A DNA stretch of 64,000 nt from Acidobacteriota bacterium. Lineage in GTDB: Bacteria > Acidobacteriota > Blastocatellia > RBC074. Positions 7,867 through 58,924 of the stretch are shown piece after piece; the stretch's first letter is position 1; each line of letters opens with the position of its first letter. The notes under the pieces were generated by a model. The model was given only the letters and a program-made list of their open reading frames with translations. It was not told where the DNA came from and did not search any database. The DNA lies in assembly GCA_018268995.1 (NCBI GenBank), contig JAFDVL010000102.1, positions 21,696 to 85,695 of the forward strand, written 5' to 3'. The position numbers and the translations under genes were made by a program.

Positions 7867-8840
7867 GCCTTGGCGTAATCCTTTTTAATCTCGGAGGGCC
7901 GGAAACATTAGCCGATGTGCAACCGTTTCTCTTTAATCTGTTCTCCGATCCTGAAATTATCCGTCTGCCAGCCCGTTTCATGCAGAAACCGTTGGCGTGG
8001 CTGATTTCTACCACAAGAGCCAAAAAATCTTCCGCCTATTATGCCCAAATTGGCGGCGGTTCGCCCTTGCGACGCATCACGGATGAACAGGCAAAGGCAT
8101 TGCAAGCCGAGTTAGGAAATCGCGGCATCGAGGCTAAAGTGTATGTGGGGATGCGCTATTGGCATCCCTTCACCAACGAAGCCATGCACCGCATCGAACG
8201 CGATGGCATCACGGAATTGATCGTGCTGCCGCTGTATCCTCAATATTCGGTTTCGACCACGGGTTCCAGTCTGAAAGAATTCATTGGACTACTCAAAGGA
8301 CAAACCAAATGGCGCAAGATTCGACGCCGCTACGTCACGCGCTGGTACAATCACGCGCCGTACATCAACACCCTGGCGGAGCAGATCAAAGCGGAAATTG
8401 CTCAATTCCCCGATCCCGATCCGCGCAAAGTGCATTTGCTTTTCAGTGCCCACAGCGTCCCGCAAAGTTATATTGAACGCGGCGATCCATATCTACGCCA
8501 CACGCAGGAAACGGTGCGTCTGGTTTCGGAGGCGCTTGGCAATGTCAGCCCCACCTCCTTGAGTTTTCAAAGCAAAGTTGGCCCGGTGAAATGGCTCGAA
8601 CCAGCGACAGATCAAAAGATTCGCGACCTGCGCTCATCGGGTGTCGAGCAACTGCTGATGATTCCGATCAGCTTTGTTTCGGAACATATTGAAACCTTGT
8701 ATGAACTAGACATTCTTTACAAAAAGTTGGCAGACGAGATTGGTGTGCCCCACTATCGCCGAGTGCCTGCCTTCAATACCGATGTGCGGTTTATCATGGC
8801 GCTGGCAGATTTGGTGAGCGAGAAAGTGAGCCGACAATGA
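7863..8840 (+). CDS. hemH: Ferrochelatase.
   Basis: The N-terminus GVILFNLGGPETLADVQPFLFNLFSDPEIIRLP is the ferrochelatase signature. The gene overlaps hbd by 4 nt. Confidence 0.9.
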   Translation: MSLGVILFNLGGPETLADVQPFLFNLFSDPEIIRLPARFMQKPLAWLISTTRAKKSSAYYAQIGGGSPLRRITDEQAKALQAELGNRGIEAKVYVGMRYWHPFTNEAMHRIERDGITELIVLPLYPQYSVSTTGSSLKEFIGLLKGQTKWRKIRRRYVTRWYNHAPYINTLAEQIKAEIAQFPDPDPRKVHLLFSAHSVPQSYIERGDPYLRHTQETVRLVSEALGNVSPTSLSFQSKVGPVKWLEPATDQKIRDLRSSGVEQLLMIPISFVSEHIETLYELDILYKKLADEIGVPHYRRVPAFNTDVRFIMALADLVSEKVSRQ

Positions 8841-44401: not shown

Positions 44402-44496
44402 ATGGTTGACAAGTTCGCAGCTGAATGCGATAAGCTGCGGTGAGGTTAACTCCCAACAAGATAAGCGAGATTTTCCTTCGAAAACAGGAGGCCCCG

Positions 44497-45270
44497 ATGA
44501 CGATGGAAGAAAATTATAGCTTGCAACGACTACTTACCTTGAGAAAGCTGACGCGCGCGATTACAGAACTTTTGCGCGGGCAAATGAAAGAGCATTTGAC
44601 GACAATCGCACCGTTGTTACGTCCTAAAACTGTTCTTGGTGAATATATCAAAAGCAGTACACGCGAAATGACGCCGGGTGCGAATTTAGCTTTTAAAGAC
44701 CTGCAAACTCTATACGAAACCGTCGCAGCCAACAAACCTTTTCTTTTAGCAAAAGAATTAGATTCTTCGCTGGACATCATGAACACCACCATTGAAATCA
44801 CGCCGATGGAATATAGCTATGAAGCGCAGGCCGAAAATCATCGGAAAGTGATTTCAATCACCTCTCCGCTCAAAAACATATTGACCTATTCGGGGTATGG
44901 GCCAACGAAGCTCAAAGAGTTGCTGGCGGATCGGTATCGTCAGCCGGAAAAAGTGCAGGAATACATTGTGCATTATTTAGCCCTGCACGTCACGATTGCG
45001 CGGCAACCGGGACTTTCTCAGATGTTGTCGGCACTGCACTTTCCAATCACCACGATTCGCTTACCCGAATTTGGCGAATTGCCAATTACCTGCATCAACT
45101 CCTCTATCAGTACGATTCGCCCCTCTGATCCGGTCTTAATTGAAAGTACCGAGTTTTCGGGACTGGACGCTTTTGAAGAAGTCGTCAATGTGACAGACAT
45201 CGCGAATTTGCAGGATTCTCTCAAAGAACGATTGCGTGAAATAGCCAAAAACCACGGCGAAAATCTTTGA
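44497..45270 (+). CDS. Hypothetical protein.
   Basis: ATG at 44497 preceded by AGGAGG. I recognise no motifs. Confidence 0.45.
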   Translation: MTMEENYSLQRLLTLRKLTRAITELLRGQMKEHLTTIAPLLRPKTVLGEYIKSSTREMTPGANLAFKDLQTLYETVAANKPFLLAKELDSSLDIMNTTIEITPMEYSYEAQAENHRKVISITSPLKNILTYSGYGPTKLKELLADRYRQPEKVQEYIVHYLALHVTIARQPGLSQMLSALHFPITTIRLPEFGELPITCINSSISTIRPSDPVLIESTEFSGLDAFEEVVNVTDIANLQDSLKERLREIAKNHGENL

Positions 45271-45276
45271 TCGCGG

Positions 45277-45573
45277 TCACCCGATCATCACCGTCATTTC
45301 TCCCATCACGATATTGCCCCCGTGAACGGTTGTATCTCCGATCCGAGCAGCAGGCATAAAGCCAATCATGACCGTCATTGACCCCATCGCGATTACATCC
45401 GGCGGCCCAACACAGGTTGCCATATCGCCAACGCGGGCAGCGGGCATAAAGCCGATCATGACCGTAGGACAACACGGCGGCAAAATTGGGCCTCCGACGT
45501 GTGGCACGGGTGGCGTGCCGGGGGTGACCATGGGGCAAACATGCATATCACCTAATCTGGCTGCTGGTGGCAT
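45277..45573 (-). CDS. PAAR-domain protein (type VI secretion spike tip), minimal form.
   Basis: Three PAAR motifs: MPPAARLGD, GFMPAARVGD, GFMPAARIGD. Conserved Cys/His is present (HVCP, PPCCP). 98 aa with no C-terminal extension. Confidence 0.9.
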   Translation of the reverse strand: MPPAARLGDMHVCPMVTPGTPPVPHVGGPILPPCCPTVMIGFMPAARVGDMATCVGPPDVIAMGSMTVMIGFMPAARIGDTTVHGGNIVMGEMTVMIG

Positions 45574-45584
45574 AAAAAACTCCT

Positions 45585-46484
45585 TTACAACTCTCGCATC
45601 GCCTTCGTTACTGCCTGTCGTTGTGAGGCATTCAAAGACACTTTTTTCAAAGCTGTGGTGCCAATCTTTTTCAGCAACCGACGTGCTTCACTTGTCAGCG
45701 GTTGACTATCTGGTGTGGGAACATTCGCATCAACGCGATACCAGTCTTGTGGACGATAATCGAAAAGCGATTCGACTAAATGCGGGCGTAATTGTTTTGG
45801 CAGCGTGGTCGTCAAAATTCGATCCAGGCTCGCCAATAACACAGGATTGCGGCGATGTTGCACGATCGCCTCGTGCATCCAGGCAATCTTTTGCTCCGGC
45901 GCGATGGTGGCATCCACCATCCGTTTTTCTAATAATCCAATTGCCGGAGCCGTGCCATTATCAGCCAAAGCATCAATCACAAACTTGATGTGAACGGAAT
46001 CAGGATCGCTGTGGGTTTCCCAAAATTTCAGCACTTCAGCCGTAGGAGGTCGTACGATTGCCAGAGCCTTGATGAGCATCGTGTCGCAGGCATCACAATT
46101 TATCGGCTTCCCAGACCGCACCAAGGCCGCCAGCGTTTCCCGCATTGGAGCCGAGTCATTGCCGCGTATCGTTTGATACAACTGAGCCAGCCGCAGTTTA
46201 TTGACGGGTTTGCGAATATGATCTTCGCGAGGATCAAGCCGATAGATGGCTTCGATTGACGAGAGAAATTCCAGAAGCTTTTTTTGTTCTTGAGAATTCG
46301 TGCTGGCAGCAAGCTTTTGCATCTCCTGCAAAAGTGAATCTGGATTCTGGGAAGAAGTCGTTGGCGTGACTGTCCCAGCTGCGGCTTTTTCGGCCTCTGA
46401 CGCGACAAGAGTTGATCGTCCTTCGCAGGCGAAAAACAAGAGCATTGAAATTATCGGGCCGGCCCAGATCATTCGGCAGTTCAT
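45585..46484 (-). CDS. Hypothetical secreted protein or lipoprotein, paralog A of the downstream gene.
   Basis: Signal peptide MNCRMIWAGPIISMLLFFAC. It shares blocks with 46501-47292 (HSDPDSVHIKFVIDALADNGTAPAIGLLEKRMVD vs HSTPDSIHLHFTIDALCKNGTDPAIALLERKMID; LRLAQLYQTIRGNDSA vs LRIARIFKVLMMNDSA). Confidence 0.6.
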   Translation of the reverse strand: MNCRMIWAGPIISMLLFFACEGRSTLVASEAEKAAAGTVTPTTSSQNPDSLLQEMQKLAASTNSQEQKKLLEFLSSIEAIYRLDPREDHIRKPVNKLRLAQLYQTIRGNDSAPMRETLAALVRSGKPINCDACDTMLIKALAIVRPPTAEVLKFWETHSDPDSVHIKFVIDALADNGTAPAIGLLEKRMVDATIAPEQKIAWMHEAIVQHRRNPVLLASLDRILTTTLPKQLRPHLVESLFDYRPQDWYRVDANVPTPDSQPLTSEARRLLKKIGTTALKKVSLNASQRQAVTKAMREL

Positions 46485-46500
46485 GAGTGGTTCTCAGGAT

Positions 46501-47292
46501 TTACTTAATCAACAAATCCACTTCCGTCAGCGTAATATCAACAGCGACCTTTTCCAGTGGCTTTAATTCCAAATTAGCTTTGGCGTATTCACAAATTGCC
46601 CGCAACTCTTCCAGGGCTTCATTGAAGGCAAGGGCGCGATCCGGTGGAACAGGAACATCGCAGGATTTGTACCATTCTTCCTTGCGATAGGCGCATAAGG
46701 CTTCGACTAATGATCCTTTTAATTCAGGGTCTAAACTGGACTGCAACAGGCGATGACAACCACGCAGCAGTGGGAGATCGTTGCGATGCGACAGGATTGG
46801 GCCGCGCATCCACGCCAGCTTGTAATCCACTTCCTGCTCTGGATCAATCATCTTTCGCTCAAGCAAAGCAATGGCGGGATCAGTGCCGTTTTTGCACAAA
46901 GCGTCAATCGTAAAGTGCAAATGAATCGAATCCGGTGTGCTGTGCGCATCCCAGTATTGAACCGCTACGGACGGAGCGGGCCGAACCGCAGCCAGTGCTT
47001 TGACCAGCAGTTCTTCGCGTGCATCTGAGTCCTTAAATGTGGGCACCTGCGTTAAGGCCACCAGGGTTTGATGGGCTGCCGCAGAATCATTCATCATCAA
47101 GACCTTAAAGATGCGGGCGATGCGCAGTCTTTTGGGAGAGAGAGCAATGTAATCTTCACGCGAATCTATCCGGCTTAAGTAATCCGCAGAACTCAAGGCC
47201 GACAACAGCATAGACTGTTCATTTGGAGTCTTACCGTTGGCCCAGCCGACGGCTTGCCTGACTAATTCCTGCGGAGTTGGTTCATTGGCCAT
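46501..47292 (-). CDS. Hypothetical cytoplasmic protein, paralog B of 45585-46484.
   Basis: No signal peptide (MANEPTPQELVRQAVGW...). It shows paralogy as described for 45585-46484. Confidence 0.6.
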   Translation of the reverse strand: MANEPTPQELVRQAVGWANGKTPNEQSMLLSALSSADYLSRIDSREDYIALSPKRLRIARIFKVLMMNDSAAAHQTLVALTQVPTFKDSDAREELLVKALAAVRPAPSVAVQYWDAHSTPDSIHLHFTIDALCKNGTDPAIALLERKMIDPEQEVDYKLAWMRGPILSHRNDLPLLRGCHRLLQSSLDPELKGSLVEALCAYRKEEWYKSCDVPVPPDRALAFNEALEELRAICEYAKANLELKPLEKVAVDITLTEVDLLIK

Positions 47293-47312
47293 CTAAGTCT
47301 TCCTCAGTCAAA

Positions 47313-49154
47313 CTATGCTTTATCCTTCAAGCCGGGATGTTTGCGCACCGTGATCGTTTGAATCAAGTCAGCATCCAAGCCGCGCCGGACGTCATACCCC
47401 ATCACATTTTCGCGCCACGGATGACCACGCTTTTTCCCTTTGTCATCCACACTGTTGACGTCATCGTCCGAGAGCTTGAATCCGGTCGCAACGTTATTTT
47501 CCCCACCGCTGCCACGATGAAATAATCCCAGAATGTGGCCTATTTCGTGCGCCATATTTTGCCCCGAATCATGTTCCGGTGCTCCGACCGTCCAATCGGA
47601 AGGATAGATCACCCCAAAGAGCCGTTTCTTCAGGTCATCCGAAGAGAAACTCGCTTGCACTTTTTTGCGCGCCTTGACATAAGCCGCATCCGAAGAATTT
47701 GAGCGGTTCTGATGCGAAAAGGATTTCATCTTCACTTTCTTTGCTGCGGCATCCGGTAGGACGCCACTAGGTAAAACCAATGACGTGCTGGGAAAACCAT
47801 CTAATTCTTCCGTCTTCCCTGAGACGCTTTGCAAGTCGGTCGCAGCGGCATTGGTTCCGGTGGTGGAACGGACAAAGGCAACATTGAGAACACTGGGGTT
47901 GAAATTCAAGCGCGTCGCAATCGGGGAGACATTATTATTCACGTTCACCGTCCAGTTATCTTTTTCCGCTGTCACCGTGAAGATTCCTTTATTTGCCGAA
48001 GCTACAGCATTATCCCAAGTCGTAGCATCAGGATCAGGAACAAATTCAATGCCGCATTGCCACCAGATAATCTGAGCAACCTGCATAAAATGAAGGACAT
48101 CGCTTGGCGACACCGTCGGGCTACGTTCTGGATGATTTGTCTTGTCTACGCCATTGATAATGTTGATGCGATAACGAATTTCTTTGATAACGCCGACCCA
48201 AGCGCGATACGTTGCCAGCAATGGGCCTTTTTCACCATCCCAACGTGCTTCAATCACCGCCATTTTATCGGTCGGAGCAGATGTGCCTCGCACCTTTACC
48301 CAAATGCCCTGATTGGAACCGACGAATTCAATCGGGCCTTCTTTGATGTGCCAGGTCACTTTGCTGACCTCTAAATCCCCCGGCCAAACCCAAGTGATTG
48401 CAATCTTCGCCGCTTTGGTTTCCAAATCAGGATCGCTTTTTTTCAAAACTGGAATCAGAGAAGGATTCACCAAGATATTCCAAGCCATATCAGGGGTCAG
48501 CGTGATGGCTTTGGCAAATTCAGTTTCCTTGCCGGGTTCCAATTCGGCTTTCAACGCTTCGATGGCGGCAGGACGGGGCGGCAATTTGCTCGGAGAAATG
48601 GGGACGGGAACAACGGGACAGACTTCAATTCTTGGCTCAACCGCTTTGCCTGAAATTGTTGTGAATGTGCTGCTGCCATTATTCTGCCGACTGACCAGGA
48701 TACCCTTGGTTTTGTCTGGCGTGGTGGTCGCTTTGACTTCCAACTGCTTGACGGTCACGTAGGCTTGAAAATACTGATGATCAGGAAAAAACAGCCAGCC
48801 TTTGATAACTGAGGAGGAAATCGGGAAGTCTGTGTATTCGTTGGTGAAGGGATATTTCAGCGTTAGTTTTGCTTCGCCCAAATCGTCATCGCTGAAGACA
48901 TCCACATCAATTCCCTTGATGGAAATTTCGATCTTGTCACCAGGCTTCTTATTTGTCAGATCAAGTTCGACTGACCATTTATCTTCCGGCAACTTGATCG
49001 TGTCTTTATCGCGCACCTCAAATTCATGATTGGGATCACCAACTGTTTTCCCGTCCACCTTGGCGGTTAATTTCCATTCTCCAGCACCAATGATGTCGCC
49101 GCTTTCATTCGCGTAGACTTTATTGAATGTTACTTTGATCTTCGTTACTGGCAT
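47313..49154 (-). CDS. Metzincin-type zinc metalloprotease domain protein; candidate T6SS cargo effector.
   Basis: 613 aa with no signal peptide. Near the C-terminus are the extended zinc motif HEIGHILGLFH (HExxHxxGxxH) and a Met-turn-like NVMGY about 40 aa later. The N-terminal 450 aa is β-rich and of unknown fold. Confidence 0.65.
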   Translation of the reverse strand: MPVTKIKVTFNKVYANESGDIIGAGEWKLTAKVDGKTVGDPNHEFEVRDKDTIKLPEDKWSVELDLTNKKPGDKIEISIKGIDVDVFSDDDLGEAKLTLKYPFTNEYTDFPISSSVIKGWLFFPDHQYFQAYVTVKQLEVKATTTPDKTKGILVSRQNNGSSTFTTISGKAVEPRIEVCPVVPVPISPSKLPPRPAAIEALKAELEPGKETEFAKAITLTPDMAWNILVNPSLIPVLKKSDPDLETKAAKIAITWVWPGDLEVSKVTWHIKEGPIEFVGSNQGIWVKVRGTSAPTDKMAVIEARWDGEKGPLLATYRAWVGVIKEIRYRINIINGVDKTNHPERSPTVSPSDVLHFMQVAQIIWWQCGIEFVPDPDATTWDNAVASANKGIFTVTAEKDNWTVNVNNNVSPIATRLNFNPSVLNVAFVRSTTGTNAAATDLQSVSGKTEELDGFPSTSLVLPSGVLPDAAAKKVKMKSFSHQNRSNSSDAAYVKARKKVQASFSSDDLKKRLFGVIYPSDWTVGAPEHDSGQNMAHEIGHILGLFHRGSGGENNVATGFKLSDDDVNSVDDKGKKRGHPWRENVMGYDVRRGLDADLIQTITVRKHPGLKDKA

Positions 49155-49187
49155 CGAATCTTTGCCTCTCCGTCAATATTGAATGGT

Positions 49188-49925
49188 TTAGCTGCCGTGC
49201 AATTGTTTCAACTTATCCTTCGTGGCGGCATCAATCTTTCCGGTGACATCTAATTCATTGTTCTGCTGGAACATTCGCAAGGCCGAAGCTAAGTCATCGG
49301 TTAGCTCATCGCCTGTTGAAGCGCAAGGAAAGCCCAAATTGGATAAGCGCATTCGCACCCCGGAAATTTCAGAGATGGGGTCCATGCCACCCAGATTCAA
49401 AGGTAATACACGCTCTTCCGGCGTCCCTGGGCGAATAACCAACCGACCTTCGCGTGCATTTGGCGGCAGTTCAACCTCAATCTGCCCCTCGCCATCTGTT
49501 GAGCCCTCTTTCACCACTTTGCCGTCTATTTCCAGACGAAAGGGAGCATTCTTGACAGGTTCATCTTGAATTGGTTCCGGGTTGTAATCCGGGTCTTCGA
49601 CGTGAGAACCATCGTCTGCACCCGTAGCATTTTCTTCCGCTGGTTTATCCTCTGCTTTGGGCGGTTCCATCACTTTGAGTTTGAGCTTGGCTGGAACGCC
49701 TTTGATCTTGAATTTATGCTTTTGATCAGTCGCACAAGATTCTTCTTTCAGTTCCTTGTCGGGGATGAACAGGACATCGCCTTCTTTGAGAATATTAGGA
49801 TCAGTGCGTTTCTGTTTCAGCTCTGCATTTTTAGGATGATTCCAGAGCGTTTCCCAGAAGAAGCCGCGATCAAAAGCGATGCTGCTGACGCAATCTCCGG
49901 GTTGGATAACATACTCTTCAGGCAT
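49188..49925 (-). CDS. LysM domain + peptidoglycan-binding (PG_binding_1-like) domain protein.
   Basis: The N-terminus YVIQPGDCVSSIAFDRGFFWETLWNHPKN...LKEGDVLFIP is LysM. The C-terminus GVRMRLSNLGFPCASTGDELTDDLASALRMFQQNNELDVTGKIDAATKDKL is PG-binding-like. It starts 22 nt after the vgrG stop. Confidence 0.65.
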   Translation of the reverse strand: MPEEYVIQPGDCVSSIAFDRGFFWETLWNHPKNAELKQKRTDPNILKEGDVLFIPDKELKEESCATDQKHKFKIKGVPAKLKLKVMEPPKAEDKPAEENATGADDGSHVEDPDYNPEPIQDEPVKNAPFRLEIDGKVVKEGSTDGEGQIEVELPPNAREGRLVIRPGTPEERVLPLNLGGMDPISEISGVRMRLSNLGFPCASTGDELTDDLASALRMFQQNNELDVTGKIDAATKDKLKQLHGS

Positions 49926-49947
49926 ACAATTCTTTCACTCCCCTGCT

Positions 49948-52278
49948 TCAGGCTTTTGTCCAGGCTTCTTTATCCAAATCGGGGAAGGTCACTTTGCAAC
50001 TGCCCGGATCAATACCGGCAACAAGAGCATAGCCTTTTTCATCCAGTGTGCCTTCCGCCAGAGTTTGTCCATCGGGCAACGTGACACGGTAGCGCAGCCC
50101 CGGAACAGGCTTGCCATCTTCATTCACGACCTCAATTTCGATCTTGGATTTCTTTTCTTTGTTCTCTTCAGAGTTGGGATTATGCGAGGGCGCATTCGCC
50201 GCAGCTTGTTCTGATGCGGATTTGGCCTGCCATTGCTGTTTGTACGTTGGCGCTTTGTCGCCCGGATCAGCATTGTCGGCAATGTCAGCTTCAGCAGGTG
50301 CGGTGGGCGAAACCAACATTCCAGCCATTCCGGGCAAAGCAGCACCACCACTGTTGATCATCACCATCGTGCCTTGAATAAAGACGCCTGCCGGAAGCAA
50401 GGTAATAAAATTGCCGCCGCATTTCAGCGTCAGGCCGCTGCTGGATTCGATGACAACCTGCATCCCCTTAACGTAGATGTTGCCAGTCGTGGATTCAGTG
50501 TGATTGCCAGAAATTTCCTCTGTCACATTGCCTTTGACGGCGACAGATTGCGCCCCAGTGATTTCAATAGCCTCTTTGCCTTTAATTTTCAAGTGATGAT
50601 CACGGCCAATTTCTTCGACTTGATCTCGTTTGATAACGATTTGCTGATCACGTTCGATCAGCTCTTTTTGGTCGCGCTTGACGATTAAATGGGTGTCGCG
50701 GCCAATCCATTCGCGGCGATCATTTTTGACGCGCAAGTCCATGTCCTTCTCGGCATGCATGAACAATTGCTCATCGCCTTTTTTATCTTCCATCCGAATT
50801 TCGTTGAAGCCGCCACCGCCCTTGGAAGAATAGGTTTTGACGGTACTCTTGGTCATTTCATCGGGCAGTTTGTAAGGCGGCATGGAATCCGCGTTATAAA
50901 CGCGTCCCACGATAATCGGACGATCTGGATCACCTTCCAGAAAATCTACGATGACTTCCTGCCCGATGCGTGGCAGCGAGATTTGCCCCCATCCTTTTCC
51001 GGCCCACGTCGTAGACACGCGAATCCAGCAGGAACTCATGGCATCGTATTTCCCTTCCCGATCCCAATGGAATTGCACTTTCACGCGTCCGTACTTGTCA
51101 GTGTAAATTTCTTCGCCCGGCGGGCCGACAACGATGGCTGTCTGCGAACCAGCGACGACGGGAACCGGGGTAATGCGCGGTGAGCGAAATGGCGTCGGGT
51201 GCTGGATACATTGAAACGAATTGTAATAACTCAGCGTTGTCTCCCCCGCATCCGAGCTGCGCCAGCTTTCGCCTAGATCGGCGGAATGTTGGATTGAGGT
51301 CAAAACATACGCCTTGTTAAAGTCGCGACGATAGTGATCGCGAAGGTCAAATCTGTAGCCCGTGACTAAACCTCGACAGGTGCTTGCGCCGTTCACGACA
51401 ACTTGTGGCAAATCTTCTTCCTGAATACGAATGCCAACCAGACGCTCGCCTTCATCTTTGGTCTTGTATTCACCGGGATAATCGTAAATTTCCAATTTAC
51501 TCTCGCCCTTACCGGACAGATTTGATGTCAGATCAAGGCCAGGGTTTTCAAAATTGAAATCGCGGACTGTGTATTGACCGGGCCGAACCTCACGGCTCAT
51601 GGTGAAATCTGTGATGACATCTTCGTCGCGTTCCTGCCCGATGACCGTTTTGTAACTGACCATATCCTGCAACGGGCAAGGTTTGAATTCATTGGCGTTG
51701 TTGGCAAGGATGAGGGTGTGTTTTTCTTTTTCGTGCTCGAAGAAGTAAAAGATGCCTTCTTCTTCCATCAGGCGCGAGACAAAGTTGAAATCCGTTTCGC
51801 GGTACTGCACGCAGTATTCGCGTTTGGCGAAGTTGCCTTGCAGCTTGTTTTTGAAATCGGCAAATCCGTTGTCCTTGAAAATCTTCTCGAGAATTTCAGG
51901 CACGGTCATTTCCTGAAAAATACGGCAATCACTGGTTCGCGTCAGCATCCAGAACCAGGGCACCAGCGAGGCAGAATAATGCGTGAAAACAGTTGGCTTG
52001 TCGCCTTCTTCCAGCGTGGAAGAGCCGCCCTGCGAAAAGGAACTGATCAAACCATTGATGAATCGTTCAGAGCCGTCTGGCAAGACAATCGCGATGGTGG
52101 CGCGCTTGCCAACAATGTCTTCAAATTTGATGCTGCGATTTTCCGACATCAGCCGCAGACTGAAATGGAAGAGTCGCGAAATTCCTTCCTGCCCATCGAA
52201 TCCCTGCAACAACAATTCGTCCTCGCCCAGCGGCGTGTAAATGCGAATGATGCGATTTTCCTGTTTATATTCTGGCAA
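49948..52278 (-). CDS. vgrG: Type VI secretion system spike protein VgrG.
   Basis: The N-terminus ENRIIRIYTPLGEDELLLQGFDGQEGISRLFHFSLRLMS is the canonical VgrG/gp27 start. Length is 776 aa. The start is TTG at 52278 with an AGGAGG RBS. A C-terminal extension of about 70 aa follows a Lys/Glu-rich linker. Confidence 0.9.
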   Translation of the reverse strand: MPEYKQENRIIRIYTPLGEDELLLQGFDGQEGISRLFHFSLRLMSENRSIKFEDIVGKRATIAIVLPDGSERFINGLISSFSQGGSSTLEEGDKPTVFTHYSASLVPWFWMLTRTSDCRIFQEMTVPEILEKIFKDNGFADFKNKLQGNFAKREYCVQYRETDFNFVSRLMEEEGIFYFFEHEKEKHTLILANNANEFKPCPLQDMVSYKTVIGQERDEDVITDFTMSREVRPGQYTVRDFNFENPGLDLTSNLSGKGESKLEIYDYPGEYKTKDEGERLVGIRIQEEDLPQVVVNGASTCRGLVTGYRFDLRDHYRRDFNKAYVLTSIQHSADLGESWRSSDAGETTLSYYNSFQCIQHPTPFRSPRITPVPVVAGSQTAIVVGPPGEEIYTDKYGRVKVQFHWDREGKYDAMSSCWIRVSTTWAGKGWGQISLPRIGQEVIVDFLEGDPDRPIIVGRVYNADSMPPYKLPDEMTKSTVKTYSSKGGGGFNEIRMEDKKGDEQLFMHAEKDMDLRVKNDRREWIGRDTHLIVKRDQKELIERDQQIVIKRDQVEEIGRDHHLKIKGKEAIEITGAQSVAVKGNVTEEISGNHTESTTGNIYVKGMQVVIESSSGLTLKCGGNFITLLPAGVFIQGTMVMINSGGAALPGMAGMLVSPTAPAEADIADNADPGDKAPTYKQQWQAKSASEQAAANAPSHNPNSEENKEKKSKIEIEVVNEDGKPVPGLRYRVTLPDGQTLAEGTLDEKGYALVAGIDPGSCKVTFPDLDKEAWTKA

Positions 52279-52288
52279 TGCCTGCCTC

Positions 52289-53416
52289 CTAATTCGTCAA
52301 TTCAAAATGATGCAGATCCACGTTGGCTGAATAAAACGTCGCGCCCCAACGAAACTTGTGTTTGTGTAATTGTTCCAGCAAACTCCACTCCAGCGTAAAG
52401 AAACCCTGTTTCCAGGCAATTAGCTTTGGAGCCTTTGCCAGCAAGACTTCAAGGGGTTCCGACCGCTTCGGGATAGGCTTTCCAGCGGCTTTCAATTTCT
52501 CATCTTCCTTCTGACGCTCATCCTGGATTCGTTTCAACTCGGATGCGACCTTTTTGACAAACTCATCGTTCACGTCTTTGACATCTTTCCACATCGCCTG
52601 TGGACTGGTGTTCCATCGCGTCAGACTCAAATCAACTTTCGCCTTCCCGGTAAACTCAATCAGAAAATCCCACTCCGCCTTCGATAGAATTGGATTGCTC
52701 AGAGATTCAATGTCAATCGCATTGCCGATGGCATGTTCGCTGATTGTGCCCAGACGATAGCGATAACCGCTGTCCTTCATTGGACGTGGATTGAATCCGC
52801 CTGTTTTGAACGGCTTGTCATACGCAACACGAACTTTGGCAAGTGCCGCTTTGAGTTCTGCTGAATTTCCACGCAGGATCAGCTCTGACACATCGTTGAC
52901 GCCTTTTTTTTGATAGGCCTTTCGCACCCAGCGGTAGAAAACTTTTTGCGCCTCCGGGTTCTCTCCCATCTCAATCAATTTGCGAAGGCCTTTTGTGGAT
53001 TCCAATTCCGTATCCGACTCGTAGGAGTAATCTTCATACTCAGCGGCGGAGCCAAAATACTCGTTCCGATAGGCAATATAATCATCCACATTCTTGAGGT
53101 TGATTTTCCCCTTCAGCAACTTGAATTCTGATTCCTCTGCTGCCCGAACCAGCGCTTTCCGCATTGCGCGAAAGATAATCATTTGCAATGGATCATCCGC
53201 AGTGAACTCAGGGCAGGGCAAGGTTTCCCAACTCAACCGAAGGCGATGGTGCGGATCGGCCAAATCTTTCATGCCCACCGAACCTGGCGTATCACCAAGC
53301 AAAAGGCGTGGCGCATCGGGATTGCCAAAATCGTTGTGGCCAAGTGGTCCCGGCGTAAGGGGCGAAAGCTTGAATGGGTCGCGGCCACAGGAAATGATGT
53401 TGCGTGAGTTCCCCAT
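52289..53416 (-). CDS. Peptidase M15 (VanY/L,D- or D,D-peptidase) domain protein; candidate peptidoglycan-targeting T6SS effector.
   Basis: M15 zinc motifs are ISEHAIGNAIDIE (SxHxxGxAxD) and the C-terminal KFRWGATFYSANVDLHHFE (WGG...D.xHFE). There is no signal peptide. The N-terminal extension of about 200 aa is unknown. Confidence 0.65.
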   Translation of the reverse strand: MGNSRNIISCGRDPFKLSPLTPGPLGHNDFGNPDAPRLLLGDTPGSVGMKDLADPHHRLRLSWETLPCPEFTADDPLQMIIFRAMRKALVRAAEESEFKLLKGKINLKNVDDYIAYRNEYFGSAAEYEDYSYESDTELESTKGLRKLIEMGENPEAQKVFYRWVRKAYQKKGVNDVSELILRGNSAELKAALAKVRVAYDKPFKTGGFNPRPMKDSGYRYRLGTISEHAIGNAIDIESLSNPILSKAEWDFLIEFTGKAKVDLSLTRWNTSPQAMWKDVKDVNDEFVKKVASELKRIQDERQKEDEKLKAAGKPIPKRSEPLEVLLAKAPKLIAWKQGFFTLEWSLLEQLHKHKFRWGATFYSANVDLHHFELTN

Positions 53417-53995
53417 CTATGCGCCCTCCTGCTTAGATGGAAACTGTTGATGATGCAAAAACACCCGCAAATCTGAAGCGGAGAAAAATACTAATCGCAC
53501 TTCTTTAATCTGATCATCGCTGGCCAAAAACGAGGCGATAGCTTTCGATGAAACAGCGGCAGCCTCTTCGCGGGGATAGCCGTAAACACCTGTCGAAATC
53601 GCAGGAAAAGCGATGGATTCCAAGCTATTCTCTGCCGCTAATTTCAGCGAGTTGTGATAGCAGGCAGCCAGATAAGCTGCATCCTGTTCACCGTGTCTGC
53701 CTTTGATCGGGCCAACGGTGTGAATGACAAACCGTGCAGGCAAATTTCCAGCAGTTGTCAGTACGGCATCTCCGGTCGGAAGCCCATCTGGGAAGCGTGT
53801 CTGGCGGATTTCCTGACACGCTTCCAGAATGGATGGCCCACCGTTTCTGTGAATTGCACCGTCCACCCCACCACCACCCATCAATGTCCAATTCGCAGCA
53901 TTCACGACAGCATCAACGGCTTGTGCCGTGATGTCGCCTTGCAATGCAATGACGCGACCGGAGAGAAATGAATGGGTTGTTTGTGGCGATTGCAT
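53417..53995 (-). CDS. Macro-domain protein (ADP-ribose binding / O-acetyl-ADP-ribose deacetylase-like, YmdB type).
   Basis: GDITAQAVDAVVNAANWTLMGGGGVDGAIHRNGG ... FPAISTGVYGYP are the classic macro-domain motifs. The stop is directly adjacent to the ATG of the M15 gene (TAGATG). Confidence 0.85.
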   Translation of the reverse strand: MQSPQTTHSFLSGRVIALQGDITAQAVDAVVNAANWTLMGGGGVDGAIHRNGGPSILEACQEIRQTRFPDGLPTGDAVLTTAGNLPARFVIHTVGPIKGRHGEQDAAYLAACYHNSLKLAAENSLESIAFPAISTGVYGYPREEAAAVSSKAIASFLASDDQIKEVRLVFFSASDLRVFLHHQQFPSKQEGA

Positions 53996-54027
53996 AAAAT
54001 GATTTTCTGCCTGAAACGCATTTCCAA

Positions 54028-56685
54028 TTACGAGATGTCGTATTTGAAGTGTTCGTCTTCCGTGAGACTAACGTAAACCTTCGAGACGGCTTCTCCCGTT
54101 GCCATACGCGTCAGGAACTCACCGCTCATTTCAGGCAGTAATGTTCCATTGAGCACGTTGTGAACGTTGCGCGCGCCGCTGTCCACATCGGTACACCGTT
54201 TCGCGACGGCTTCCACCACGGCATCGTCGTAGGAGAAGTCTGCGCCGTGATTTTCTTCGATTCGCTTCGCAATCTTGGAGAGCTGCAACTTGATAATGAG
54301 CCGCAAAATTTCATCCGAGATTGGATAGTACGGCGCGATGGTCATACGTCCGAGTAACGCAGGCTTGAACGCCTTCACTAACTCAGGCCGTAAGGCTTCG
54401 ATCAACCCCTCAGGCTCAGGCTTTGTATCCGGGTCGGCGCACAGCTTCATGATCGTGTCCGTCCCAACGTTCGAGGTCAGCAGAATAATCGTATTTTTAA
54501 AATCAATCTCACGTCCTTCGCCATCTTCCAGCACGCCCTTGTCAAAGACCTGATAGAAAAGCTCCATCACGTCTGGATGAGCTTTTTCAACTTCATCCAG
54601 CAGGACGACCGAGTATGGTTTGCGGCGGACAGCTTCCGTCAAGACACCGCCTTCGCCGTACCCGACATAGCCTGGAGGTGAGCCTTTGAGACTGGAAACA
54701 GTGTGCGCTTCCTGATACTCGCTCATGTTGATCGAGATCAAATTGCGTTCACCGCCGTAGAGTGAATCGGCCAATGCCAGGCCCGTTTCGGTCTTGCCAA
54801 CACCGCTGGTTCCGACCAATAAAAATACACCGATGGGGCGTTTGGGATCAGTCAAACCAGCACGCGAGGTCTTGATGCGTTCGGAAATTGCGTTCAGGGC
54901 ATGATCCTGACCGATAACGCGTTTCTTCAGGGTATCGGAAAGATGTAAGATCGCCTGAATTTCATCCGCTACCATTTTACCAACCGGAATGCCTGTCCAG
55001 CCTGAAATCACTTCGGCAATGGTCTGTGACGTCACAACCGGCTGCATCAATGGCGTCTCGCCCTGAACCGTTTTCAGTTCCGCATTCAGGTTGGCGAGGT
55101 CAGTACGCAAGGCTTGCGCCCCTTCTGTCGAATGCTCGGCAGCCATTGCTTCCAGCTTTTCACGAATTTCGCGAATCTTACCAATCAGGTTTCGTTCCTG
55201 TTCCCATTGTGCATTCAGTTTTGCCAATGACTCTTCAGTGGTGGTGCGTTCTGCATTGAGTTCGGCAATGCGCTCTTCGTGTGCAGCACCAGTGATGGCT
55301 TCACGTTCGAGGACATTGATTTCAGTCGTCAGATTTGCAATGCGACGATTGGAATCTTCAATCGCAGGCGGCGTTGCTCCCTGGCCGATGGCAACTTTGG
55401 CGCAAGCGGTGTCAAGCACACTGACGGATTTATCAGGTAATTGCCGCCCTGTGATGTAACGACTGGATAAGCGCACGGAATCTTCAACTGCCTCATCCAA
55501 AATGCGAACGTGGTGATGGTTTTCCAGCGCGCTGACAATACCACGCATCATCACAATGCCTTTGGCTTCGTCCGGCTCTTCGACTTTGACGACCTGAAAG
55601 CGGCGAGCAAGCGCGGCGTCCTTCTCAAAGTATTTTTTGTACTCGGCCCAGGTGGTCGCCGCAATGGTTCTGAGTTCGCCGCGTGCCAGTGCAGGCTTCA
55701 GCAAATTCGCCGCATCGTTCTGTCCGGCCTGTCCGCCCGCGCCGATCATCGTATGTGCTTCGTCAATAAAAATAATGATCGGAGTGGGCGAGGATTTGAC
55801 TTCGTCAATCACTGACTTCAAGCGATTTTCAAATTCCCCCTTGATTCCGGCACCCGCTTGAAGCAGGCCTAAATCAAGAGTTCGCACAATGACATTCTTC
55901 AGCGGGTCAGGCACATCGCCTTGGGCAATACGAAGGGCGAAGCCTTCAACAACTGCGGTCTTACCAACCCCCGCTTCACCCGTCAGAATTGGGTTGTTCT
56001 GGCGGCGACGCGTCAGAATGTCAACGACCTGACGGACTTCAAATTCACGGCCCAACACCGGATCAATTTTGCCGGAACGAGCCTTAGCAGTCAGGTCAAT
56101 CGTGAATTGATCCAACGCCTTTGTTTTGCCCGGTGCACCAATTGCTCCGCCTTCAGTTGCCTCACCGCCCCCCTCCATCGGTTGCGAGGTGAAGCCTTCT
56201 GCGGCACGAGCTTCGGCTGAACCTGTGGTCAAGGCAGCAAAGTTTTCGCGCAGTTCGTCCACTTTGATTTTTGTGAAGTCTTTGGAAATCTCACGCGCAA
56301 GACGAATCAATTGCTCATTCGTCAATAAAGCCAACAGCAAATGGCCAGATCGAACTTTCGCCTCACCGTATTCCACCGACGCCAATAACCACGCGTCCTG
56401 AAACAAGGTTGGAATGTATGGGGAAATCGAAGGTGTGCGCGCATTCCCAGTCTTCAAGCGATCCATTGCTACTGTGATGTCCTTGCCCAACCGTGACGCA
56501 TTTAGCTCATAGTGACGAAGGATTTTATTCAGATCGGTATCAGTGGATTCGAGCAATTTGACAAAGAGATGCTCAATTTCGACATCGTAATTGGTACGAG
56601 ACAAGCAAAGTCCGGCAGCACCTTCAAGCGCGCTTCGTGTCGTATCATTTAATCGGGCTACAAGTGATTTTAAACTTACATTCAT
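54028..56685 (-). CDS. clpV: Type VI secretion AAA+ ATPase ClpV (TssH).
   Basis: ClpB-like protein of 885 aa. The N-domain is LKSLVARLNDTTRSALEGAAGLC. There are two AAA modules (GEAGVGKTAVVEG; GTSGVGKTETGLALA). It lies within the T6SS operon. ATG at 56685. Confidence 0.9.
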   Translation of the reverse strand: MNVSLKSLVARLNDTTRSALEGAAGLCLSRTNYDVEIEHLFVKLLESTDTDLNKILRHYELNASRLGKDITVAMDRLKTGNARTPSISPYIPTLFQDAWLLASVEYGEAKVRSGHLLLALLTNEQLIRLAREISKDFTKIKVDELRENFAALTTGSAEARAAEGFTSQPMEGGGEATEGGAIGAPGKTKALDQFTIDLTAKARSGKIDPVLGREFEVRQVVDILTRRRQNNPILTGEAGVGKTAVVEGFALRIAQGDVPDPLKNVIVRTLDLGLLQAGAGIKGEFENRLKSVIDEVKSSPTPIIIFIDEAHTMIGAGGQAGQNDAANLLKPALARGELRTIAATTWAEYKKYFEKDAALARRFQVVKVEEPDEAKGIVMMRGIVSALENHHHVRILDEAVEDSVRLSSRYITGRQLPDKSVSVLDTACAKVAIGQGATPPAIEDSNRRIANLTTEINVLEREAITGAAHEERIAELNAERTTTEESLAKLNAQWEQERNLIGKIREIREKLEAMAAEHSTEGAQALRTDLANLNAELKTVQGETPLMQPVVTSQTIAEVISGWTGIPVGKMVADEIQAILHLSDTLKKRVIGQDHALNAISERIKTSRAGLTDPKRPIGVFLLVGTSGVGKTETGLALADSLYGGERNLISINMSEYQEAHTVSSLKGSPPGYVGYGEGGVLTEAVRRKPYSVVLLDEVEKAHPDVMELFYQVFDKGVLEDGEGREIDFKNTIILLTSNVGTDTIMKLCADPDTKPEPEGLIEALRPELVKAFKPALLGRMTIAPYYPISDEILRLIIKLQLSKIAKRIEENHGADFSYDDAVVEAVAKRCTDVDSGARNVHNVLNGTLLPEMSGEFLTRMATGEAVSKVYVSLTEDEHFKYDIS

Positions 56686-56730
56686 GATCAACCTCGATTC
56701 CAGGGGCCTCTTTAGTAATTTAGTGGATCG

Positions 56731-57591
56731 TTATTTTTTCGGCGGCGCATACGTCGAAAGTGGGTACGCCTTCAGCCCAAAGGTTTCCGGGCTTTCTGCC
56801 AAGATGGCAGCGGCAAAGAACCTGGGCAGATAATGAACCCCTTCGTCTAAAAAAGCCTTGTCGAATTTCTTGGCGTCTGGCTTCGCTAAGATCGCCCAGA
56901 GTTCACCGCCTGAGTCGTGCTCTTTAATCAATTCAGCAAAATCGCGTTTTACATTTGCAGTGCCACGGTTGTACGCAAGCATGGCCAGCGCGGCGGAGAT
57001 GCCATCCTTCCCAAATTCCGCCATTCGCGCTTTGATAAATCGAGCCGCCGCGTTTGCCCCTTTCTCGACATCGCAAAGGGCATCCGCTTTTACGCCTAAA
57101 CTTGTGGCAGATGCTGGCAGGATGGCAAACATCCCTTTCCCTTTGCCCTTCGCAGGGCAGGGTTGGAATTCGGATTCCAACAACGCAACCGCATTCCCTA
57201 ACGTTTCCAGGACTTTCTCTTTTTCAAACTCACCATTGATAATAGGAGCATATTGCACCGCACGCTCAAAGACTTTGTTCAGGTCTTCACCGCCCGACTT
57301 GGGATCAGCAGCGCCAACGCGTACGGCATAGACATCAACCCATTTTTTGATCAACTGGACGCCTTCTGCTGAAACCACCAAAGGCTTTTCAGGGGATAAC
57401 ATCCAACCAAGATTTCCCGCGTAATTTGAGATAAAACTGGCCCGTGCCTGGTCATTCATTTTCAAATACTGTGATGCGCCACTTGTTGCAGCCTCTGAGG
57501 CTTTGGGCGCTGAGGTATTGCTTTGGGCGAGGATCGGCATGGCTAAAAACAGCAGTGAGGTTAGCATGACCGATGGGATTAACTTCTTCAT
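56731..57591 (-). CDS. Secreted lytic transglycosylase (SLT-domain) protein.
   Basis: Signal peptide MKKLIPSVMLTSLLFLAMPILAQS. SLT-like motifs are LLESEFQPCPAKGKGKGMFAI (ES-x-F...G-LMQ variant) and LAMLAYNRGTANV (AYNAG-like). Confidence 0.55.
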   Translation of the reverse strand: MKKLIPSVMLTSLLFLAMPILAQSNTSAPKASEAATSGASQYLKMNDQARASFISNYAGNLGWMLSPEKPLVVSAEGVQLIKKWVDVYAVRVGAADPKSGGEDLNKVFERAVQYAPIINGEFEKEKVLETLGNAVALLESEFQPCPAKGKGKGMFAILPASATSLGVKADALCDVEKGANAAARFIKARMAEFGKDGISAALAMLAYNRGTANVKRDFAELIKEHDSGGELWAILAKPDAKKFDKAFLDEGVHYLPRFFAAAILAESPETFGLKAYPLSTYAPPKK

Positions 57592-57604
57592 TTTTCCTGA
57601 CTCC

Positions 57605-58924
57605 TTATCGTTTGACGAAATAAAAATCTCCATCAAGGGAGGTATTTTCCCAGGGCACTTGTTGACCATTTGTTTTTTCTTTAACTGCAATTCGGGTTCG
57701 TTTCAGTACTTCTTCTACTTTTAAATTCGGCTCGCGCATGTGCCTTAATAATTCCTGCGTGTACAGACCATTTTTCCCATCGCCATCGCTGGCAACTTCT
57801 CCTGGCCCCGTGGCATAAGCCACAACGGTTCCACTTGGTGCCGACATCACCGCGAGTCCACGTGAAAGTGAGCGCGTACGTTGCACAAAAGGGTTGTTGC
57901 GACAGGCGTCCAGAATCACGATATTCAAACGGCTCCCAGCAGATTCCAATTCGTTCATGATCCGGCCTGCATCCACGGCTTCATATTCGGCATCGCCTTC
58001 CTTTTCAATCTTTGCTCCGACAGGAACCAGATAATTTACGCCTTTGACCTGAATTCCGTGTCCCGCAAAATAGAACAAGGCCACGCTGCCGCGCTGTATT
58101 TTATTGCCAAACGCGCGCAGGCTTTCTTCCAGTTCGCGTTTGTTCAGGTTGGTATATTGCATGACCTCAAAACCTGTTTCACGCAGGGATTGCGCCATCG
58201 CATTAGCATCGTTAGCAGGATTCGCCAACGGGCCAACCTGATAGTTGCTATTCCCGATCACCAAAGCCAGACGATTTGTGCTACTGATTTCATTGACCGA
58301 GCTGGATGAAATGCCCGAATTTGTGACGACAGTTGAATTCCCGTCACTGCGAGCAGGCGTACTGACAGCAGGATTCTCATTCGGCTTCTTTTCCGGCGGC
58401 AGAACAGGCCCGGTCGGCTGATTTGTATTGTTGCGGACGGGTGGATTTGTCGGCGCAGTATTTTTGCTAATGATTACTGGCCCTTTCACTTTCAAAGTAA
58501 AAAAGCCGCTTTGGTTGTTGCGCGGGCCAAAAACGCGCATGAGCACATTTTGACGAGTGTCCAGTCGAAGTTTTGCATCCTTCCGGTCTCCACCGGAGGA
58601 AGCATCAAACTTGATCAGTGTTTGTGCATCAGCATCCAGAATTTCGACGCCGATGTTTGACCATTGCTCATTGGTTTTCACCTCAAGAGAAAAACTGACA
58701 TCGCCCGGCCCGGCGGTAAAAGTATAGAAGCGGTTGATGGAAACATTCGGAGCAATATTCCCTTTCAATTCCTGATTGAACAATGGCATGGGATTATCTT
58801 TGCTGCTTGGTTGTGCAAACACCAGTTGAGCGACACAAAGACAGCCCAATGCAATCCAACGCAACCTGCAAGACAATCGGTTTGCGCTGTTGGAACTTCG
58901 ATGTAAGGCGTTCAATAATTTCAT
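57605..58924 (-). CDS. Secreted caspase-family (peptidase C14) protease with an N-terminal β-sandwich pre-domain.
   Basis: Signal peptide. The caspase His/Cys dyad is ALFYFAGHGIQ ... IVILDACRNNPF. It lies inside the T6SS operon. Confidence 0.8.
   Translation of the reverse strand: MKLLNALHRSSNSANRLSCRLRWIALGCLCVAQLVFAQPSSKDNPMPLFNQELKGNIAPNVSINRFYTFTAGPGDVSFSLEVKTNEQWSNIGVEILDADAQTLIKFDASSGGDRKDAKLRLDTRQNVLMRVFGPRNNQSGFFTLKVKGPVIISKNTAPTNPPVRNNTNQPTGPVLPPEKKPNENPAVSTPARSDGNSTVVTNSGISSSSVNEISSTNRLALVIGNSNYQVGPLANPANDANAMAQSLRETGFEVMQYTNLNKRELEESLRAFGNKIQRGSVALFYFAGHGIQVKGVNYLVPVGAKIEKEGDAEYEAVDAGRIMNELESAGSRLNIVILDACRNNPFVQRTRSLSRGLAVMSAPSGTVVAYATGPGEVASDGDGKNGLYTQELLRHMREPNLKVEEVLKRTRIAVKEKTNGQQVPWENTSLDGDFYFVKR

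Follow-up and report, generated by a model that had tools for sequence, protein, structure and literature searches.

A candidate type VI secretion cargo effector of the LAS/M15 metallopeptidase type, with a recurrent N-terminal leader, in an Acidobacteriota bacterium

INTRODUCTION

Effectors that degrade the cell wall are a well-known kind of cargo in type VI secretion (T6SS, for the system). We describe here a candidate from the metagenome-assembled genome of an Acidobacteriota bacterium (Blastocatellia; RBC074), termed the M15 gene, which lies at 52289–53416 on the minus strand (−) of a 64-kb stretch of contig JAFDVL010000102.1. This whole stretch is referred to as the window, and positions without a locus handle are positions within it. 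The M15 gene encodes a 375-aa protein and stands between a Macro-domain gene and vgrG in a T6SS gene cluster.

The closest characterised T6SS-linked relative is TagX of Acinetobacter baumannii and Acinetobacter baylyi, which carries the Pfam domain PF13539 with Ply500-like residues, is encoded in the T6SS core cluster without an immunity gene and cleaves the L-Ala-D-Glu bond (PMC5061870; review PMC13584744). TagX has two N-terminal transmembrane (TM) helices, resides in the inner membrane with a periplasmic domain, is not secreted and is required for secretion of Hcp (PMC5061870). M15-like T6SS effectors fused to the WHIX element have been predicted (PMC12135965), and LysM–M15 proteins are found downstream of vgrG in Neisseria (PMC10210955).

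The M15 gene probably encodes a VgrG-associated T6SS cargo effector, composed of a short N-terminal leader and a wall-cutting enzyme of the LAS/M15 type; we infer its secretion, its dependence on VgrG, its periplasmic site of action, the bond that it cleaves and its toxicity. The enzyme is a new subfamily of a known effector kind, and the leader is the more interesting result.

THE PREDICTED M15 ENZYME

The open reading frame (ORF) starts at the first ATG past an in-frame stop, and the identical database protein, JST84_28210, is labelled hypothetical protein. A preliminary description of the sequence had called it an M15 peptidase from two motifs, SxHxxGxAxD and WG...DxxHFE. Both are present in the translation, the former as SEHAIGNAID at residues 226–235 (52712–52741, −) and the latter as WGATFYSANVDLHHFE at residues 357–372 (52301–52348, −). 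A homology search with the protein returned 198 clusters, in which the C-terminal ∼75% is conserved and the N-terminal ∼90 residues are variable. In an alignment of 63 homologues (37–80% identity), residues H228, D235, D367 and H370 are invariant, as are R211, P212, K214, S226, G231, A233, G338, F339, W357, G358, L368 and F371. The pattern H-x6-D...H of the zinc-ligand triad is thereby present (H228 and D235 in the first motif, H370 in the second, all predicted ligands), as is the general-base DxxH of the M15C type (D367-L-H-H370, with D367 the predicted base), which aligns with D-Y-P-H of Ply500.

The match of the protein to Pfam PF13539 (Peptidase_M15_4) scores 26.9 bits, only narrowly above the cut-off of 25, with its best stretch at residues 224–249, and most homologues carry a precomputed match to the same model. 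Against the PDB, the family profile matches only the L-alanyl-D-glutamate peptidases Ply500 (2vo9, E 0.031) and LysB4 (6akv), and both motifs align with their zinc-ligand and general-base residues: SEHAIGNAID with GGQSNHNYGVAVD of the two enzymes, and WGATFYSANVDLHHFE with GFKWGGDWKSFKDYPHFEL of Ply500. A phmmer search with the single protein against PDB sequences gave no match. In the viral structure library BFVD the top matches were weak and were to phage M15 ‘D-Ala-D-Ala carboxypeptidases’ (probability 0.97–0.99, E ∼0.09). The PF13539 match, the invariant catalytic residues and the alignment to Ply500 and LysB4 support the M15 assignment and a putative zinc metallopeptidase of the LAS/M15 type.

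AlphaFold models the protein with a predicted local distance difference test score (pLDDT) of 85.7 overall and 92.4 for residues 201–375, confidently from residue 76 onward. The models are mostly helical, with a small LAS core split by an 87-residue helical insertion. A family-specific helical domain occupies residues ∼63–200 (52817–53230, −), with helices at 76–199, pLDDT >90 from residue ∼90, and conserved E97, Y113, F121, Y161 and W163. The first half of the LAS core, residues 203–250 (52667–52810, −), has the pattern GGFNPRPxK...YRLGTxSEHAxGxAxD and holds the stretch matched by Pfam. In both models the insertion follows at residues 251–337 (52406–52666, −) with one long helix at 272–310, and the second half of the core, residues 338–375 (52292–52405, −), contains the remaining invariant residues from G338 to F371.

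GENOMIC CONTEXTS OF THE M15 FAMILY

The protein has neither a signal peptide nor a TM helix, its highest 19-residue Kyte–Doolittle mean being 0.85 overall and 0.23 within residues 1–60. Its gene is separated from vgrG by 10 nt: the stop codon is at 52289–52291 and the TTG start of VgrG at 52278, with a Shine-Dalgarno-like GGAGG inside the spacer. The lack of a signal peptide and the 10-nt gap upstream of vgrG, both noted in the preliminary description, are thus exact, from hydropathy and from the junction sequence, respectively.

A context survey covered 23 distinct M15 loci, the window included. Eleven are linked to T6SS genes (the window, L001, L002, L006, L010, L013, L014, L017, L018, L019 and L022) and five to extracellular contractile injection systems (eCIS; L003, L005, L009, L011 and L015). 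At 80% identity, L001 is fully syntenic with the window; at 45% identity, L006 lacks the Macro gene, and the order ClpV–M15–VgrG is kept in both. The M15 gene also follows ClpV in L017, TssK–TssL–TssM in L002 and VgrG in L010 and L019 (the latter with PAAR too), and in L014 it lies beside a Tox-PAAR-like deaminase. In the eCIS-linked loci it comes after the eCIS AAA ATPase, beside eCIS_core toxins, or upstream of Pvc16, sheath and tube genes.

T6SS-linked M15 proteins start with M(A/G)xSR and PG motifs, and eCIS-linked ones with GNxAVxRLL and/or DUF4157/eCIS_core. P0023 and P0021 are M15 homologues with the eCIS features, whereas both eCIS_core and GNxAVxRLL are missing from the window protein. 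A leader that is swapped along with the injection system is expected of cargo and unexpected for a housekeeping enzyme. Judging from these comparisons, contractile injection systems of two kinds seem to trade cargo modules, the M15 module being exchanged between a T6SS leader and a DUF4157 leader. The family is patchily distributed across phyla with polymorphic N-termini, and orphan copies lie far from any vgrG in L007, L020 and L021. The recurrence of T6SS and eCIS contexts, the ClpV–M15–VgrG order at 45% identity, and a leader common to polymorphic proteins that adjoin vgrG all favour the earlier proposal of a VgrG-linked cargo effector.

THE N-TERMINAL LEADER

Residues 1–58 of the window protein, MGNSRNIISCGRDPFKLSPLTPGPLGHNDFGNPDAPRLLLGDTPGSVGMKDLADPHHR (53243–53416, −), form the leader, which runs MGNSR...TPGPLGHNDFGNPD...TPGSVGMKDLADP and contains two copies of (S/T)PGxxGxxDxxDP. 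It is predicted to be disordered, with AlphaFold pLDDT <50 at residues 1–31 and 37–62. A profile of the leader (alignment A2) was built from 11 leaders and searched exhaustively against 1.84 billion representative proteins (50% identity clusters); a word-indexed search with the profile listed only proteins of ≤104 aa, and the full-length carriers come from the exhaustive search.

Carriers numbered 396 representative clusters at E ≤ 1e-3 and 103 at E ≤ 1e-10, with lengths of 68–499 aa, and in ∼85% of the top 150 the match lay within the first 10 residues. Only two of these 150 belong to the M15 family, with one further weak case. The C-terminal tails are diverse, those of 134 leader proteins falling into 79 BLAST clusters. 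Pfam searches of 110 leader proteins found Pesticin, VanY, M15_4, Phage_lysozyme, Muramidase, CHAP, Glucosaminidase, T6SS_VgrG3-like_C, Tlde1, NlpC/P60, LysM, PG_binding_1, Ntox5, Peptidase_M91 and Peptidase_C70; most of the 110 tails had no Pfam match, and no Pfam model of the leader region was common to the set. Residues 1–62 of the window protein match no model in Pfam or NCBIfam, libraries outside which the RIX, PIX and WHIX models possibly lie. Full-text literature searches found no description of the leader motif or an equivalent marker.

Carriers were found in Acidobacteriota, Desulfobacterota (Geomonas oryzisoli WP_216799942.1), Verrucomicrobiota, Planctomycetota and Myxococcota, and also in Thiobacillus, Nitrosomonas and Chromatiaceae; further named members are from Blastocatellia and Desulfuromonadaceae. 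On the evidence of its carriers, the leader is a general module on polymorphic proteins rich in predicted wall hydrolases, and it seems to be the hallmark of an extensive group of polymorphic T6SS cargo, as yet undescribed, in phyla that have received little study. We tentatively join these results in a single picture that may or may not hold as a whole: a disordered twin (S/T)PGPLGxNDxxDP leader would label cargo beyond the well-studied Proteobacteria, either fused to it or as a separate protein, with the M15 module swapped onto an eCIS leader elsewhere. If the leader is a real delivery determinant, then it picks out hundreds of uncharacterised effectors in phyla of soils and sediments, for which there has been hardly any work on T6SS biology.

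LOCI ENCODING LEADER PROTEINS

Searching metagenomes with a degenerate DNA pattern of the twin motif yielded 87 stretches, which were pooled with loci L026–L032 to give 81 leader ORFs, none of the M15 family. Of the 27 leader ORFs with a total flank of at least 6 kb, 9 have T6SS genes as neighbours; for the 54 with shorter flanks the count is 8. In eight further loci (L027, L046, L078, L093, L095, L103, L115 and L118) leader proteins adjoin vgrG. The order is ClpV–leader–VgrG in L093 and L095, VgrG–leader in L046, L078 and L118, and leader–VgrG in L115, with a caspase-like fragment and not ClpV on the other side; in L103 the leader gene is divergent from vgrG. A leader protein lies directly beside ClpV in L085.

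The ClpV–VgrG slot of L027 holds a 97-aa leader-only ORF (8001–8294); the stop of this ORF and the start of a 283-aa Ntox44 toxin (31.9 bits) overlap. Other leader-only ORFs, all within 76–99 aa, are L026 8001–8264, L029 8001–8231, L031 8980–9243 (in a VgrG–DUF2169–PAAR-like island) and L032 6829–7128. In L026, L027 and L029 a separate ORF begins at −4 to +10 nt, which suggests a split tether-plus-toxin layout, not fragments; a separate leader protein of this size upstream of a toxin gene would be a tether or adaptor.

A family of ∼180 aa without a Pfam match was also seen near leader effectors, at L041 549–1082, L016 1683–2234 (−) and L019 8946–9422. The L041 and L016 members are 32% identical, and in L019 the gene is flanked by PAAR and the M15 gene. 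The product might serve as an adaptor or chaperone, or else be a further toxin.

CANDIDATE IMMUNITY GENES AND PARALOGS

Two families of candidate immunity proteins adjoin M15 genes, and their M15 partners belong to two sister subfamilies. Members of family 1 (∼200 aa, with a signal peptide or lipobox, 30–48% identical to one another; 6572–7204 in L013) are encoded directly downstream of M15 in L013, L017, L018 and L019, and in L023 the gene is upstream. In L014 and L016 the gene directly upstream of M15 encodes a lipoprotein of family 2 (41% identity between both; 4478–5167 in L016). In the window's own M15 subfamily, L002 has a signal-peptide DUF4384 protein 558 nt downstream, and in L041 a leader–muramidase gene is followed by a signal-peptide ORF. 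Such secreted or lipoprotein partners fit a periplasmic action.

The window contains a second cargo-like module at 45277–49154 (−), comprising a 613-aa protein, PAAR (45277–45573) and two paralogs of 263 and 299 aa, of which one is cytoplasmic and the other has a lipobox. The 613-aa protein is metalloprotease-like, with a C-terminal HEIGHILG zinc-protease motif and a weak Matrixin match. One of the paralogs, paralog A (45585–46484), had been put forward in the preliminary description as a possible immunity protein for the M15 enzyme, a role that the comparison does not support: the 613-aa HEIGH protein accompanies paralogs A and B wherever they are found (window, L001), and neither is present in L002, L006 or L010, three loci with the same M15 subfamily. 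From this co-occurrence they are better read as partners of the 613-aa protein. We accordingly reject paralog A as a general M15 partner; for this genome alone it may still serve as one.

The Macro protein (53417–53995, −), of the O-acetyl-ADP-ribose deacetylase type (Pfam Macro 2e-43; NCBIfam NF001664, 225.6 bits), was likewise considered as M15 immunity and rejected. It has no signal peptide and occurs only in the window, L001 (9339–9917) and L041 (1–333); in the last the Macro protein, 62% identical, is encoded upstream of another leader effector, a PF11860 muramidase joined to the leader, for which there is a separate secreted partner. The Macro protein may belong to the cluster in a lineage-specific way, or be an orphan antidote against an ADP-ribosylating toxin. 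Between ClpV and Macro, L001 has an unannotated gene of 273 aa.

PUTATIVE OPERON AND NEIGHBOURING GENES

Minus-strand genes follow in the order TssF, TssG, CsgG-like lipoprotein, secreted caspase, SLT transglycosylase, ClpV, Macro, M15 gene and VgrG, and then LysM/PG_binding_1 protein, 613-aa HEIGH protein, paralog B, paralog A (lipobox) and PAAR. The stretch from ClpV to PAAR is on one strand and tightly packed, consistent with a single operon. The TAG of the Macro gene directly abuts the ATG of the M15 gene (0-nt gap), and the Shine-Dalgarno sequence of the M15 gene, AGGAGG 8 nt 5′ of the ATG, lies within the Macro gene. A simple scan of 45000–57800 found no promoter-like sites on the minus strand, and terminator-like sites at the level expected from shuffling.

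The presumed carrier, VgrG (776 aa; 49948–52278, −), matches Phage_GPD (8e-101), Gp5_trimer_C and Phage_base_V in Pfam, and its C-terminal extension has a weak transthyretin-like (CarboxypepD_reg) match. VgrG, the LysM/PG_binding_1 protein, the 613-aa protein and paralog B all lack a signal peptide, so that the nearest secreted product downstream is paralog A, five genes from the M15 gene. The ClpV (TssH) ATPase (54028–56691, −), identified from its translation and from synteny with the Pfam-annotated ClpV of L001, L006 and L027, is by these comparisons the upstream border of a recurrent ClpV–effector–VgrG slot. Between the caspase gene and ClpV lies an SLT lytic transglycosylase of 319 aa with a signal peptide (56731–57690, −; Pfam SLT 36.5 bits), kept in L001; by analogy with MltE and TagX, it is a candidate remodeller of the producer's own wall, a task that would otherwise fall to a TagX-like enzyme.

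Several other genes were noted in passing. Directly after vgrG, a 245-aa protein (49188–49925, −) has an N-terminal LysM-like segment and a C-terminal PG_binding_1 domain; it might bind peptidoglycan as a factor delivered together with the cargo, or be an accessory of the spike like gpX. A secreted caspase-like Peptidase_C14 protein (57605–58924, −) and a CsgG-family lipoprotein with FlgT_C (58954–59946, −), encoded between TssG and ClpV and both kept in L001, are unusual members for a T6SS cluster; caspase-like fragments also occur near leader or M15 genes in L017 and L115. Convergent with PAAR is a 276-aa gene (44440–45270, plus strand) with no Pfam match, whose homologues recur in T6SS loci and lie directly upstream of TssK in L013, L022, L085 and L091; T6SSs of this type probably use it as an accessory or core-like gene, as yet without a name. 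A 166-aa gene adjoining TssF (62974–63474, −) has a papain-like Cys/His spacing and a weak Peptidase_C34 match (E 0.007), and its product may have an accessory role or be a small effector of the amidase or peptidase kind. Just outside the T6SS cluster two secreted proteins are encoded, one of 1511 aa with repeats of the FG-GAP, beta-helix and CARDB types (38934–43469, −; syntenic in L001) and a caspase/TPR protein of 803 aa (35303–37714, −).

PROPOSED ACTION AND ALTERNATIVE EXPLANATIONS

As a cargo effector, the protein would be made from a gene translationally coupled into a ClpV–Macro–effector–VgrG operon. Its leader (residues 1–58) would load it onto the spike complex or otherwise mark it for T6SS export. 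The enzyme part (residues ∼63–375), with its predicted zinc ligands and general base in a core set in family-specific helices, would after firing reach the periplasm of a neighbouring Gram-negative cell and cleave peptidoglycan stem peptides there; the wall would be weakened and the target cell killed or lysed. By analogy with Ply500, LysB4 and TagX, the bond cleaved is most probably L-Ala-D-Glu.

Several observations weigh against this reading. As to the enzyme, the Pfam score is marginal, with no single PF13539 stretch significant alone, and the alignment to solved enzymes is restricted to short motif stretches. Foldseek found no match in the PDB with either the full model or a trimmed catalytic model, so that the M15/LAS assignment is based on sequence and not on fold comparison. 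As to delivery, seven of the 23 M15 loci (L007, L016, L020, L021, L023, L024 and L025) have no T6SS or eCIS gene in the DNA examined, several of them with short flanks; most short leader loci have no T6SS gene in the flanks examined; and a docking domain was sought at the VgrG C-termini beside leader proteins, but these vary and no conserved one was found. As to immunity, no candidate adjoins the M15 gene in the window, as the preliminary description had stated, or in the closest subfamily members L001 and L006, and tblastn found no homologue of family 1, family 2 or the L002 DUF4384 protein in the 64-kb window. The missing partner is unusual for a wall-degrading effector fired among kin, and how the producer protects itself is a question that such a wall-cutting effector raises, placed as it is in a core cluster with no immunity gene next to it; an unlinked immunity gene may lie outside the window, which covers 64 kb of a 193-kb contig.

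The explanation that survives best after ours, though we regard it as unlikely, is a wall-breaching enzyme borne on VgrG that would inflict local, sublethal damage, opening the wall of the target, and possibly of the producer, for the spike and its cargo. The lysozyme domain of phage T4 gp5 provides a likeness. Local damage would need no immunity gene, and none is seen beside the M15 gene in this subfamily; the position adjoining vgrG in the core cluster is kept in the window, L001 and L006; the same M15 module occurs in eCIS loci, systems that also pierce envelopes; and further cargo of the operon, namely the 613-aa HEIGH and LysM/PG_binding_1 proteins, might gain from a breach. However, the same slot holds an unrelated toxin, Ntox44, in L027, the leader is common to many classical toxin domains, and orphan M15 copies (L007, L020, L021) lie far from any vgrG. 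The secreted partner genes beside the sister subfamilies moreover imply a harmful activity.

A second alternative, which we consider decidedly improbable, is a TagX-like accessory L,D-endopeptidase that would act in cis on the producer's peptidoglycan, letting the T6SS assemble or fire, and not be exported to targets. The precedent itself counts against a cargo effector: TagX has PF13539, is encoded in a T6SS cluster and is no effector (PMC5061870). The Ply500-like catalytic residues, the lack of an immunity gene and the position between the core genes clpV and vgrG suit such a role too. Yet the window protein has no hydrophobic segment (maximum 19-residue mean 0.85, as above), leaving the periplasm unreachable through Sec, and the cluster already encodes a secreted SLT transglycosylase (56731–57690). 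The leader is shared with polymorphic toxins, and eCIS cargo domains are found fused to certain relatives.

The cytoplasmic dipeptidase VanX is also a LAS/M15 enzyme. The protein might accordingly be an effector with a target other than peptidoglycan or in the cytoplasm, such as a VanX-like D-Ala-D-Ala dipeptidase draining wall precursors or a protease directed at eukaryotic or other prey, a proposal to which we attach very little weight. It would suit the lack of a periplasmic partner nearby in this M15 subfamily, and eCIS toxins are often without immunity genes, with possible targets in distant organisms (PMC3482391). The best alignments, however, are to muralytic L-Ala-D-Glu endopeptidases, the sister subfamilies are paired with secreted or lipoprotein genes, and the leader class is dominated by wall hydrolases; nor is a cytoplasmic immunity candidate evident, the Macro protein having no known link to peptidases.

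Least credible of all is a housekeeping cytoplasmic peptidase located in the T6SS cluster by chance, for which speak the absent export signal and the homologues outside recognisable contractile injection loci, and against which speak the link of 16 of the 23 loci to such systems, the leader type that tracks the system type, the patchy phyla, the polymorphic N-termini and the lack of a match to any NCBIfam housekeeping family. Orthologues outside T6SS loci, named in the preliminary description as a sign of a housekeeping enzyme, do exist, but their housekeeping nature is not borne out: they have a like leader, are encoded in eCIS loci or have other toxins as neighbours, and so resemble orphan effectors.

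COMPARISON WITH KNOWN SYSTEMS

Among solved proteins, the family profile with its two aligned motifs points only to Ply500 (2vo9) and LysB4 (6akv), of the MEROPS M15C type. These have compact domains of ∼150 residues together with cell-wall-binding domains, whereas the core of the window protein is split and wrapped in helices, and Foldseek sees no overall likeness. With the Tae and Tge effectors, VgrG3, Tlde1, the WHIX–M15 proteins and the LysM–M15 proteins of Neisseria, the window protein has in common a non-Sec product, a gene adjoining vgrG and a predicted periplasmic attack on the wall. It differs from them in its M15 subfamily and delivery element, in having no adjacent immunity gene, and in coming from Acidobacteriota, not Proteobacteria.

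Cargo toxins of eCIS/PVC type carry an N-terminal DUF4157 (eCIS_core, ‘PVC-metallopeptidase’; PMC3482391), and so do M15 homologues ∼50% identical to the window protein. These DUF4157–M15 homologues are encoded in eCIS loci near other eCIS toxins (L003, L005 and L015); toxins of the eCIS type are often without an immunity gene. The window protein, in contrast, lacks DUF4157 and GNxAVxRLL and is encoded in a T6SS locus.

The leader resembles MIX, FIX, RIX, PIX and WHIX in being a short N-terminal element on polymorphic cargo effectors with diverse toxic C-termini. RIX is also found on proteins carrying other effectors (PMC10435454), to which the leader-only ORFs of 76–99 aa followed by a separate toxin gene (L026, L027 and L029) are comparable. 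The leader is set apart from these elements by an apparently unrelated sequence (twin TPGPLGxNDxxDP, predicted disordered), by its occurrence in other taxa and by having no Pfam or NCBIfam model.

With TagX the window protein shares PF13539, Ply500-like metal and general-base residues, a place in a T6SS core cluster and the absence of an adjacent immunity gene. Unlike TagX, it has no TM anchor: its residues 1–62 are hydrophilic and disordered, with a leader as found on polymorphic toxins, and a helical N-domain of ∼140 residues and an 87-residue core insertion are further differences. PF13539 would thus occur in a membrane-anchored biogenesis factor in the one case and in apparent fired cargo in the other, and whether the domain is joined to a TM anchor or to a leader may decide its role.

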